Below, in pieces: positions 4,672 through 29,524 of a stretch of DNA of 64,000 nucleotides. The stretch is from NCBI RefSeq assembly GCF_056746865.1, contig NZ_CM163382.1; one strand, 5' to 3'. The position numbers and the translations under genes were made by a program. The notes beneath the pieces are model-generated. The model did not search any database and was not told the origin of the DNA. It was given only the letters and a program-made list of their open reading frames with translations. The stretch's first letter is position 1. Each line of letters opens with the position of its first letter.

Positions 4672-6271
<1,600 letters not shown>

Positions 6272-25390: not shown

Positions 25391-26821
<1,431 letters not shown>

Positions 26822-27004
26822 GCTCTGTCCCAGCGCCGCCTCCTCAGAAAAGAGTCGGCGCTGAAATTCTCCTTTCTTTCTGGAAAGCGCCTCGCATAAT
26901 CTGAAGAAAACCAATGTAATACGCTCATCTGGATTGTTACCGGCAGATGCCCGGCGTATAGCTGATTCCATTATTCAACACAGCGCCATAAAAAGGGACA
27001 GATA

Positions 27005-28132
27005 ATGGAATCGCTCTCAGAGAGAACCACAGCAGGCTACCAGCAAATCCACGACGGCATTATTCATCTGGTCGATAGCGCCCGAACGGAAACGGTACGT
27101 AGCGTTAACGCGTTAATGACCGCGACGTACTGGGAAATTGGCCGACGAATTGTCGAATTTGAACAAGGCGGTGAGGCCAGGGCTGCGTATGGTGCGCAGC
27201 TAATCAAGCGACTATCAAAGGATTTAAGTCTAAGGTATAAGCGTGGGTTCTCTGCAAAAAACTTACGCCAAATGAGGCTTTTTTACCTCTTTTTTCAACA
27301 TGTTGAAATTCGCCAGACAGTGTCTGGCGAATTAACACCATTGGGAATGCCGCAGACACCGTCTGCAGAATTCCCATCGGCAAAGATTTGGCAGACGCTG
27401 TCTGCCAAATCTTTCCCCCTGCCCTGGTCCACCTACGTCCGTCTACTTTCCGTTAAAAACGCTGACGCCCGCAGCTTTTATGAAAAAGAGACGCTCCGCT
27501 GTGGTTGGTCTGTCCGCCAGCTAGAGCGGCAAATTGCGACCCAATTTTATGAGCGAACACTACTGTCACATGATAAATCAGCCATGCTGCAACAACACGC
27601 TCCTGCCGAGATGCATATTCTTCCGCAGCAGGCGATACGCGATCCCTTTGTGCTCGAATTTCTGGAATTGAAAGATGAATACTCAGAATCCGATTTTGAG
27701 GAGGCGCTGATCAACCACCTGATGGATTTCATGCTGGAACTTGGGGATGATTTTGCCTTTGTTGGTCGGCAGCGAAGGTTACGCATTGATGACAACTGGT
27801 TTCGGGTCGATCTGCTGTTTTTCCACCGCCGTTTACGCTGCCTGCTAATCGTCGATCTAAAAGTGGGCAAATTTAGCTATAGCGATGCCGGACAGATGAA
27901 TATGTATCTCAACTACGCCAAAGAGCACTGGACGCTACCGGATGAAAATCCGCCCATCGGTCTGATTCTCTGTGCAGAGAAAGGAGTCGGAGAAGCGCAT
28001 TATGCACTGGCTGGTTTGCCTAACACCGTTCTGGCGAGTGAATATAAGATGCAACTACCTGATGAAAAACGACTCGCGGATGAACTCGTTCGAACACAGG
28101 CGGTGCTAGAGGAAGGCTATAGACGCCGATAA
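27005..28132 (+). CDS. yhcG: DUF1016-family protein with C-terminal PDDEXK-like nuclease fold
   Basis: 375-aa ORF MESLSERTTAGYQQIHDGIIHLVD…; length and sequence match YhcG as I recall it; contains the internal tandem palindromic repeat. Confidence 0.8.
   Translation: MESLSERTTAGYQQIHDGIIHLVDSARTETVRSVNALMTATYWEIGRRIVEFEQGGEARAAYGAQLIKRLSKDLSLRYKRGFSAKNLRQMRLFYLFFQHVEIRQTVSGELTPLGMPQTPSAEFPSAKIWQTLSAKSFPLPWSTYVRLLSVKNADARSFYEKETLRCGWSVRQLERQIATQFYERTLLSHDKSAMLQQHAPAEMHILPQQAIRDPFVLEFLELKDEYSESDFEEALINHLMDFMLELGDDFAFVGRQRRLRIDDNWFRVDLLFFHRRLRCLLIVDLKVGKFSYSDAGQMNMYLNYAKEHWTLPDENPPIGLILCAEKGVGEAHYALAGLPNTVLASEYKMQLPDEKRLADELVRTQAVLEEGYRRR
27307..27411. repeat. three diverged 39-bp tandem units, each with a ~25-27-bp palindrome (GCAGAC…GTCTGC core), in-frame within yhcG
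   Basis: Seen directly: AATTCGCCAGACAGTGTCTGGCGAATT (27307-27333), CGCAGACACCGTCTGCAGAATTC (27351-27373), GATTTGGCAGACGCTGTCTGCCAAATC (27385-27411); centres ~39 bp apart. Confidence 0.85.
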
Positions 28133-28146
28133 TTTCAGCAATTTCG

Positions 28147-28173
28147 AATTCTGCAGACAGTGTCTGCAGAATC
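28147..28173. repeat. fourth copy of the yhcG-type palindrome, 15 bp downstream of the yhcG stop
   Basis: AATTCTGCAGACAGTGTCTGCAGAATC, near-perfect palindrome sharing the GCAGACAGTGTCTGC core. Confidence 0.8.
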
Positions 28174-28191
28174 TTTAAAACGAACTAAGTT

Positions 28192-29524
<1,333 letters not shown>

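Follow-up and report, generated by a model that had tools for sequence, protein, structure and literature searches.

The yhcG gene in the 64-kb segment of Escherichia coli DNA analyzed here (contig NZ_CM163382.1; hereafter, the window) contains a tandem, in-frame array of short palindromes, and one more copy lies just outside the gene, which raises the question whether the repeated sequence belongs to the encoded protein or to the nucleic acid itself. Comparison across the protein family answers in favor of the latter: each of the four palindromes represents a nucleic-acid element that acts in cis and resides inside DUF1016/YhcG genes, and it is this DNA element that gives rise to the conserved peptide I-x-Q-T-x-S-[AG]-[EKQ]-[SFL], not the reverse.

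Four palindromes at the yhcG gene

The features on which the argument turns are the following (coordinates in the window; nt, nucleotides; aa, amino acids; energies and z scores refer to DNA hairpins):

27005-28132, plus strand: yhcG coding sequence, an open reading frame (ORF) of 375 aa, with DUF1016_N and the YhcG_C PD-(D/E)XK nuclease domain, member of PDC-S02
27293-27410, plus strand: three-unit array of 39-nt (13-codon) units encoding EIRQTVSGELTPLGMP / QTPSAEFPSAKIW / QTLSAK, direct-repeat family D1
27307-27333: P1, perfect palindrome (13+1+13), AATTCGCCAGACAGTGTCTGGCGAATT, 25-nt frame 27308-27332, center 27320, -13.1 kcal/mol, z -8.1
27347-27371 (25-nt frame): P2, imperfect palindrome, ATGCCGCAGACACCGTCTGCAGAAT, center 27359, 2 mismatches in 11 arm pairs, -10.8 kcal/mol, z -4.5
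27382-27414: P3, perfect palindrome (15+3+15), AAAGATTTGGCAGACGCTGTCTGCCAAATCTTT, frame 27386-27410, center 27398, -15.7 kcal/mol, z -7.8
28148-28172: P4, extragenic perfect palindrome (12+1+12), ATTCTGCAGACAGTGTCTGCAGAAT, center 28160, -10.8 kcal/mol
28133-28195, plus strand: in-frame continuation past the yhcG stop, which duplicates a unit and the sequence upstream of it (40 nt with 78% identity to the P1 region)

A sequence-only reading of this DNA had reported palindromes with a spacing of about 39 bp and an extragenic fourth copy 15 nt past the stop codon, and all four lie where it had placed them; the peptide units it quoted agree with the translation of the ORF. Two details required correction, namely, the core of P1, which is CCAGAC...GTCTGG rather than GCAGAC...GTCTGC, and the extent of P3, which is longer than had been described. 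The start-to-start distances from P1 to P4 are 39, 39 and 762 nt, with P4 beginning 15 nt past the TAA stop of yhcG (28130-28132), and the 13-codon units leave the yhcG ORF intact. In K-12, P2 has a single arm mismatch. The motif CAGACNNNGTCTG occurs four times in the window, always at yhcG, against 0.08 copies expected, and none of 100 shuffled sequences reached four. Folded as single-stranded DNA, the units yield -10.8 to -15.7 kcal/mol (z -4.5 to -8), and the whole array yields -42.6 kcal/mol (z -10). P4, which among the loci examined is found in Escherichia only, is in frame with yhcG, as indicated by the read-through allele P0019 that translates the continuation and carries P4 at its C-terminal end.

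A 59-aa ORF on the minus strand (27204-27383) reads QTVSAAF and QTLSGEF and so mirrors the peptide of the plus strand; the palindromes by themselves produce this effect, and it provides no evidence for an antisense gene.

Constraint on the element across the DUF1016 family

We analyzed DNA from 80 genomes of Beta- and Gammaproteobacteria, Acidobacteria, Brocadia and the Planctomycetes-Verrucomicrobia-Chlamydiae (PVC) group. Among representatives of 50%-identity protein clusters, the unit peptide is present 1 to 4 times and sits directly before the conserved (F)PLPWSHY/LSWSHY helix. Its Q-T-x-S portion is encoded as CAG-AC[A/G]-nnG-TCT, and the consensus of the element is ATT-N3-CAGAC-N3-GTCTG-N3-AAT, with arms that end sharply at 12 bp. 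Within the 123 units of 74 genes of non-enterobacterial origin (GC content 40-68%, mean 59%), the choice of codons departs strongly from that elsewhere in the same genes:

Ser codon: TCT in 97.6% of units versus 11.5% elsewhere
Gln codon: CAG in 100% of units versus 65% elsewhere
Thr codon: ACA in 76% and ACG in 24% of units versus 16% and 34% elsewhere

Together, ACA and ACG account for all Thr codons in the units compared to 50% elsewhere. In the same set, Watson-Crick pairing between the arms, measured at the distance k in nt outward from the palindrome center, is close to 100% at k2-6 (the invariant CAGAC/GTCTG), extends through the variable positions k7-9 (115, 105 and 84 of 123) and through ATT/AAT at k10-12 (101, 94 and 119 of 123), and drops to 56 of 123 at k13. 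The constraint thus acts at the nucleotide level and reaches into the protein, where the identity of the amino acid preceding Q is linked to that of the two following S, exactly as reverse-complementary codons demand:

Residue before Q and residues after S: R with GE; L with AE; W with AK; C or F with GK
Residue before Q and residues after S: P with AE; S with AK; V with AQ; G with DQ

In this protein-level comparison, 50 of 94 units are compatible with a palindrome, whereas shuffling gives a mean of 18.6 and a maximum of 30.

The number of units varies within the family: among 73 distinct genes, 37 have one unit, 26 have two, nine have three and one has four. In these other taxa, 30 of 47 pairs of adjacent centers show a spacing of exactly 39 nt, and the spacing is a multiple of 3 in 46 of the 47; the N3 triplets differ between neighboring units in 43 pairs. 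Nearly all copies are intragenic (124 of 127), and no flanking copies were detected outside Escherichia in 466 kb around the 74 genes. By these comparisons, the palindrome is an ancient, family-wide, nucleotide-level feature of DUF1016 genes that spans phyla with a conserved 39-nt period, and not an E. coli novelty.

More distant relatives were sampled blind to the palindrome, by gathering from viral contigs 72 homologues that are 30-84% identical to the query P0168, a member of a clade with about 40% identity to E. coli YhcG. For 29 of 57 of these genes, the strongest palindrome of the entire ORF is located upstream of the anchor at a distance of 75 nt or less. The mean best arm length is 7.9, compared to 4.5 when each gene is recoded synonymously according to its codon usage, with p<=0.01 in 21 of 50 genes. 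In a fixed register, pairing peaks exactly at -12 nt from the anchor (5.55 of 11 pairs against a background of 2.84), and at least 9 of the 11 pairs form there in 13 of 44 genes, against 0.0005 per background position. At eight stem positions, 2-4 types of base pairs are observed, and the cores are altered on both arms at once, as in GAGAC/GTCTC, GTCACGCA/TGCGTGAC, CGGCACAC/GTGTGCCG, GCGAACGC/GCGTTCGC, GTCGACAC/GTGTCGAC, TGCTACACA/TGTGTAGCA and TTGCAAACG/CGTTTGCAA. The distant homologues keep the symmetry at the same position while the core sequence changes.

The sequence-only reading placed the repeat in a linker before the PDDEXK-like domain. The window YhcG significantly matches both Pfam models, DUF1016_N (PF17761, E 1.1e-41) at residues 19-184 and YhcG_C (PF06250, E 1.8e-56) at residues 208-360, so the repeat, at residues ~101-135, is instead a loop inside DUF1016_N, well before the PDDEXK domain that starts at residue 208. 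The DUF1016_N match spans a model of 137 positions and accordingly includes about 30 extra residues. In the AlphaFold model, residues 101-131 have a predicted local distance difference test score (pLDDT) below 50 and lack secondary structure; in the model of a single-unit allele (pLDDT 85.7, predicted template modeling score 0.75), the loop is likewise unstructured. The array is thus predicted to encode a disordered loop of YhcG, which indicates that the constraint is on the nucleic acid rather than on the protein. An explanation of the motif at the protein level was rejected given that the loop is disordered in two AlphaFold models and the synonymous-recoding nulls do not regenerate the palindromes.

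A palindrome could also persist without any function. Under such a scenario, template switching during replication (quasi-palindrome correction) maintains the symmetry of an ancestral palindrome, slippage multiplies and removes units, the disordered loop tolerates the element, and hairpins stall replication and thereby cause rearrangements. This would account for arms that evolve in concert and remain complementary even at unconserved positions, for the tolerance of insertions in a disordered loop, for the loss of the element in many distant homologues and, as described below, for rapid copy-number variation in a hypervariable array, symmetry that is kept in extragenic copies, and mismatches without strand asymmetry. 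It leaves unexplained the invariance of ATT and CAGAC at synonymous sites of 123 units over the 40-68% GC range while N3 drifts, the sharp end of the arms at 12 bp, and the conservation of position and of the 39-nt period across phyla; furthermore, similar palindromes are not seen to be maintained elsewhere in the same genes, where the background is 0.0005 per position. We regard a functionless, self-perpetuating palindrome as conceivable but rather unlikely.

Copies outside the gene and rearrangements of the locus

The yhcG locus is present in 4467 of 5426 complete E. coli genomes. Its surroundings in the window and the variable region within the gene are as follows:

25403-26821, plus strand: gltD
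27230-27405: hypervariable mosaic patch, from sliding-window identity to EC571, E69 and E. whittamii and from protein alignment
28192-28656, minus strand: nanQ/yhcH, followed by nanK and nanE

In K-12-type genomes, a fifth palindrome, P0 (ATTCGCCAGACTGTGTCTGGCGAAT), which is absent from the window, is located 14 nt after the gltD stop (L246 156-180, K-12-like E. coli, NZ_CP026028.1), so that the 8.3-kb K-12 island gltF-yhcA-yhcD-yhcE(IS5)-yhcF-yhcG is bracketed by P0 and P4. About 950 E. coli genomes without yhcG contain a 67-bp gltD-nanQ spacer that consists of the left flank of P0, one perfect palindrome identical to P1, and the right flank of P4 (L005 2503-2527). The arms of P4 are ATTCTGCAG...CTGCAGAAT in the window compared to ATTCTCCAG...CTGGAGAAT in L008 and L014, a compensatory change from CTGCAG…CTGCAG to CTCCAG…CTGGAG in E69 and E. 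whittamii, where P4 matches the second internal unit of the same genome. The proposal in the sequence-only reading that the palindrome exists independently of coding constraint is borne out by this extragenic copy, with its symmetry kept by compensatory changes. The same reading envisaged a miniature mobile palindrome amplified in frame; local amplification is observed, but genome-wide dispersal is not, given that BLAST over E. coli genomes found no more than 4 places in any genome (median 2), and all three inspected classes of copies are at the gltD-nanQ locus.

Directly 3' of gltD in the window (26831-26880), there is a hairpin, CAGCGCCG…CGGCGCTG, with a T-rich tract, probably the gltBD terminator; K-12-type genomes contain P0 and the fimbrial island in its place. 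The yhcF-yhcG spacer (window ~26870-27004) harbors the stationary-phase non-coding RNA G0-10703, which is divergent from yhcG and overlaps 128 bp of the yhcG 5' untranslated region (PMC7967276); it stops short of the palindromes.

The array itself varies among strains. The E. coli alleles carry 1, 2 or 3 units, with four at most among close homologues, so that comparison of repeat number, which the sequence-only reading had suggested, reveals neither a fixed number of units nor confinement of the copies to the gene. In O157:H7, exactly 78 bp, that is, two units, are missing (junction EIRQTVSGELTPL/PWSTY), and allele P0004 has a separate in-register 78-bp deletion (junction QTVSGE/SFPLPWS), so that these are two independent events; further alleles have two or three units that differ in sequence. 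The length of the yhcG amplicon is one of the six LSPA-6 typing markers of E. coli O157:H7 (PMC3514354, PMC8733641). The element explains this typing polymorphism along with the local genome plasticity at the E. coli gltD-nan locus. From about 80 nt 5' of P1 to the end of P3, alleles are mosaics with 60-75% identity and indels, whereas elsewhere the same alleles are 97-100% identical.

Other changes at the locus are larger. In 726 of the 5426 genomes, the 3' half of yhcG and P4, through the nanQ stop, are replaced by 466 bp that start at the outer edge of P3, directly after …GTCTGCCAAAT (window 27410/27411). The replacing segment (L002 2907-3372, E. coli GTEN_24) encompasses a 101-aa ORF annotated as 'transposase' (WP_000639208.1), which has no match in Pfam or PADLOC, and, 3' of this ORF, another palindrome, TGGCACAGAGC…GCTCTGTGCCA. 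Recurrent cassette exchange at P3 is not supported because the 726 genomes, at one locus and with at least 99% identity, represent a single event. In Citrobacter gillenii, a yhcG segment of about 1.4 kb stands between direct repeats that duplicate about 100 bp from the 3' end of gltD (L010 2150-2255 and 3547-3652), and it is followed by a codB-like permease gene instead of the nan genes; the arrangement looks as if a circular gltD'-yhcG fragment had been inserted through a single crossover (Campbell-type), and no palindrome is present at the insertion junctions.

Two further rearrangements bear no relation to the palindromes. In E. coli A30 (L003 1265-1285), an internal deletion of about 375 bp between AAGATG microhomologies (endpoints at window ~27675 and ~28050) inactivates yhcG and, together with other variants, indicates that the gene is often decaying in E. 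coli. In E. coli XL1-Blue (L245, NZ_CP081007.1, 8096-8100), rsxC is joined directly to yhcF by a large rearrangement beside the locus.

The element is also found apart from the gene. A pattern scan for ATTNNNCAGACNNNGTCTGNNNAAT produced 174 matches, of which 121 lie no more than 1.5 kb from a DUF1016 match, while the other 53 lack such a neighbor. Among these solitary copies, the N3 triplets are fully complementary in 29 of 53, compared to 1/64 by chance. Most are intergenic, come from hosts with 26-65% GC and are often paired at a distance of 8-53 nt, and several are accompanied by recognizable DUF1016 debris; the solitary palindromes survive gene loss. The possibility that they are empty sites of Type I restriction-modification (R-M) loci was rejected, with 5 of 49 located near HsdM/HsdS-like genes. 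One solitary palindrome (L173) adjoins a truncated IS3 transposase gene. In a viral contig (L240, IMGVR_UViG_2534681820_000001, GC 26%), direct repeats of 179 nt with 94% identity (4686-4864 and 6008-6186), each holding a palindrome and DUF1016-like debris, bracket a 1.3-kb cassette with ORFs of 176 and 126 aa, possibly a toxin-antitoxin pair, between a 544-aa AAA/PD-(D/E)XK-like gene and a tyrosine integrase gene. In a non-coding region of another viral contig (L223 9938-9985), two perfect palindromes overlap by 2 nt with centers 23 nt apart; because this pair is out of frame, tandem units can occur without a reading-frame relationship.

The palindromes are associated with rearrangements, and two related explanations take this association as their starting point. 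One is that the palindrome, as duplex or extruded cruciform, is what the DUF1016 nuclease itself recognizes and cuts, so that the gene would contain its own target and be a self-contained, self-repressing module with breakage and rejoining at the copies. We consider such self-targeting unlikely; if it is true, the nuclease would drive the insertion, excision and swapping of palindrome-bounded segments such as the P0-P4 island, the L240 cassette and the array mosaics, and would represent a new form of nuclease-linked, site-specific genome plasticity in defense islands. The other explanation, which is compatible with a DNA-binding role of the element, is that the palindrome, again as duplex or extruded cruciform, is a site at which the PD-(D/E)XK nuclease encoded by the surrounding gene, or else a host enzyme, cuts or recombines DNA, mediating the gain, loss and exchange of palindrome-bounded segments. 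The bracketing of the K-12 gltF-yhcG island by P0 and P4 with a single palindrome at the empty site, the swap of the 3' half of yhcG with a junction that coincides precisely with the outer border of P3, the palindrome-bearing repeats around the L240 cassette by an integrase, the IS3 fragment in L173, the coincidence of the array with the mosaic patch, and the similarity of the YhcG C-terminal domain to structure-specific nucleases all fit a recombination or breakage site. Conversely, the replacement at P3 is a single event, the window-type arrangement lacks P0, the Citrobacter junctions have no palindrome, the 466 kb around the 74 genes outside Escherichia yielded no flanking copies, and defense islands rearrange frequently anyway; also, PD-(D/E)XK nucleases are not known for strand exchange. 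The features of integron attC sites are missing, with no GTTRRRY/RYYYAAC core in the palindrome and no integrase at the locus. Altogether, we find a recombination or breakage site unlikely.

Candidate readers and known systems

With 24,561 cluster representatives at E<=0.001, DUF1016/YhcG is a very large nuclease family that is enriched in R-M loci, conjugative elements and prophages. The window YhcG matches the PADLOC profile PDLC04807 (PDC-S02) over residues 8-370 (E 6.6e-136); PDC-S02 is a candidate defense family known as such from survey listings, and an NCBIfam search returned no family for YhcG. The C-terminal domain is similar to the nuclease domains of NucS/EndoMS, Bax1 and Can2/Card1; we found no solved structure of any DUF1016 protein. 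In 26 of 74 diverse genomes (L012-L086), a same-strand gene for a protein of about 385 aa follows the DUF1016 gene, with a 1-nt overlap in 24; the product appears HsdS-like by eye, and an NCBIfam search gave no match. An N6-methyltransferase-like gene (~600 aa; weak hsdM/MAD2 matches below the cutoff) is located upstream in 14 of the 74 genomes, and a gene for a MobF relaxase is upstream in five, all acidobacterial loci.

These neighborhoods bear on the possibility that the units fold in the yhcG transcript, where mRNA hairpins would control translation, stability or processing, with the protein perhaps binding its own mRNA, and could tune the downstream gene in hsdM-DUF1016-hsdS operons. The strong stems, the covariation typical of conserved RNA stems, and the 26 homologues with a same-strand downstream gene, 24 of them overlapping by 1 nt, and 14 with an upstream methyltransferase-like gene are in line with an RNA role. 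However, mismatches on the sense strand at k2-12 include 15 G:T versus 31 A:C, and N3 mismatches in 85 oriented units are divided 8 versus 19, so that there is no excess of G.U-compatible mismatches, which are if anything depleted. Besides, the loops are merely 1-3 nt long, there is no U-tract, and solitary and extragenic copies are found in varied transcriptional contexts, divergent as well as convergent. A search with Rfam covariance models yielded nothing at the gathering threshold (best scores of 13-19 bits against thresholds of 34-100, E above 2), and a known RNA family was rejected as the identity of the element, these matches being at noise level. An mRNA hairpin thus seems improbable.

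The sequence-only reading also raised the possibility of a terminator for convergent yhcG and yhcH. Indeed, P4 lies between the convergent genes yhcG and nanQ, and the solitary copy in strains without yhcG lies between gltD and nanQ, as would be expected of a bidirectional intrinsic terminator, with the internal copies being incidental. Nevertheless, a terminator scan of P1-P4 reported none, neither strand has a T-run (tail sequences CTTTAAAA and TCGAAATT), and only 5 of 37 solitary copies are located between convergent genes; the family-wide intragenic copies and the codon-level conservation would remain unexplained. We consider this explanation highly implausible.

An element that acts at the DNA level is favored by the lack of a G.U excess and of an Rfam match, by a P4 that does not resemble a terminator, and by the symmetry of the solitary copies. 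Such an element could be a binding site for a dimeric reader specific for both sequence and symmetry. A sequence-specific reader is suggested by the candidate half-site ATT-N3-CAGAC, in which ATT and CAGAC, unlike N3, show no variation across a large clade; differences in the core are confined to comparisons of distant protein clades, a pattern expected for a reader that is co-inherited with its site. Tentatively, and with somewhat less than even confidence, we propose that this reader is the N-terminal HTH-like domain of YhcG itself, whose candidate fold resembles the helix-turn-helix (HTH) domains of ParB and KorB, and that the palindrome is an operator or a nucleation site that is portable and needs no particular promoter. 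Such a site would travel with the gene on every transfer and would let a potentially toxic nuclease regulate its own expression under any promoter, for example, by roadblock. Among the roles that the sequence-only reading had put forward, an operator for YhcG itself is accordingly the most attractive. The complementarity of the N3 positions, which the protein would not contact, implies that hairpin or cruciform extrusion matters or that template switching during replication homogenizes the arms, and slippage or unequal exchange among the 39-nt units could alter the copy number. The palindromes also act as hot spots of rearrangement, and this accounts for P4 outside the gene, for P0 of K-12, for the island bounded by palindromes and for the relics that stand alone.

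Several observations weigh against a self-recognizing YhcG. A dimer that binds the duplex does not require complementary N3 triplets, so that an extra assumption is needed. The LSWSHY and WSVRELxRQI helices, which are the best conserved of the protein, barely change across clades with different cores, which is awkward for direct read-out. Approximately 40-50% of the distant homologues have no strong palindrome at the loop position, indicating that the element is dispensable. Finally, the wobble (G.U) test is confounded by coding constraints.

The most conserved-looking N-terminal peptide motif of DUF1016 is the shadow of a DNA palindrome, which changes the reading of family alignments, and the element is a clean bacterial case of a nucleic-acid code laid over a protein code across phyla. 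It also gives a protein without known activity a defined 25-bp sequence as candidate ligand or substrate, making the question of YhcG recognition directly testable. A search of the full-text literature on yhcG, DUF1016, PDC-S02 and palindromes found no description of the element, and each of the known systems that it resembles differs from it in important respects.

The closest in form are the Rickettsia palindromic elements (RPE), or 'protein-coding palindromes' (Ogata et al. 2000, 2002, cited in PMC4316617). RPEs are, like the yhcG units, palindromic DNA inserted in frame within protein genes such that the ORF remains intact and the peptide is a passenger; they are 100-150 nt long, limited to Rickettsia, and behave as selfish insertions in many unrelated genes and intergenic regions. 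The present element, in contrast, is a 25-nt palindrome within a 39-nt unit that, in many phyla, occupies the same fixed position in a single protein family instead of being dispersed in the genome.

Intragenic operators are known, such as lac O2, and a parS site inside the Bacillus subtilis spo0J gene was reportedly described by Lin and Grossman in 1998. Compared to the ParB-parS and KorB-OB systems, YhcG lacks the N-terminal CTPase domain of ParB and has a PD-(D/E)XK nuclease as the partner domain, and the candidate site is 25 bp rather than 13-16 bp, is arranged in tandem at 39 nt, and is complementary at unconserved positions.

Repetitive extragenic palindromes (REP) and bacterial interspersed mosaic elements (BIME) are also short, imperfect, hairpin-capable palindromes that are conserved in sequence and structure and tied to one protein family. 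However, REPs are extragenic, number hundreds of dispersed copies, contain a GTAG motif and flank the gene of the linked Y1 HUH enzyme, the REP-associated tyrosine transposase (RAYT), whereas the element of yhcG is mostly intragenic, with 1-5 copies per genome at one locus, and is linked to a PD-(D/E)XK nuclease. Its sequence does not resemble the REP consensus, and the genes at the locus are gltD, yhcG and nanQ, with no RAYT among them. A REP-like dispersed element was rejected because the copies are confined to the locus.

Like coding variable number tandem repeats, the 39-nt units are arranged head to tail and in frame, and their number differs between strains, as in O157:H7 with its 78-bp deficit; unlike these repeats, the units are internally symmetric and share only about 63% identity outside the palindrome, and both the unit and the period are conserved across phyla. 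In the central region of Type I HsdS subunits, the number of 4-aa TAEL repeats sets the spacer length in EcoR124I/II. The yhcG array is comparable in that a change in the number of short in-frame repeats moves two functional modules of a restriction-related protein closer together or farther apart; nonetheless, the HsdS repeats are non-palindromic and constrained at the protein level, whereas in yhcG the linker is predicted to be disordered and the DNA symmetry is constrained. The element of DUF1016/YhcG genes, which lacks at least one defining feature of RPE and of REP/RAYT, is thus a previously undescribed palindromic cis-element tied to a protein family.

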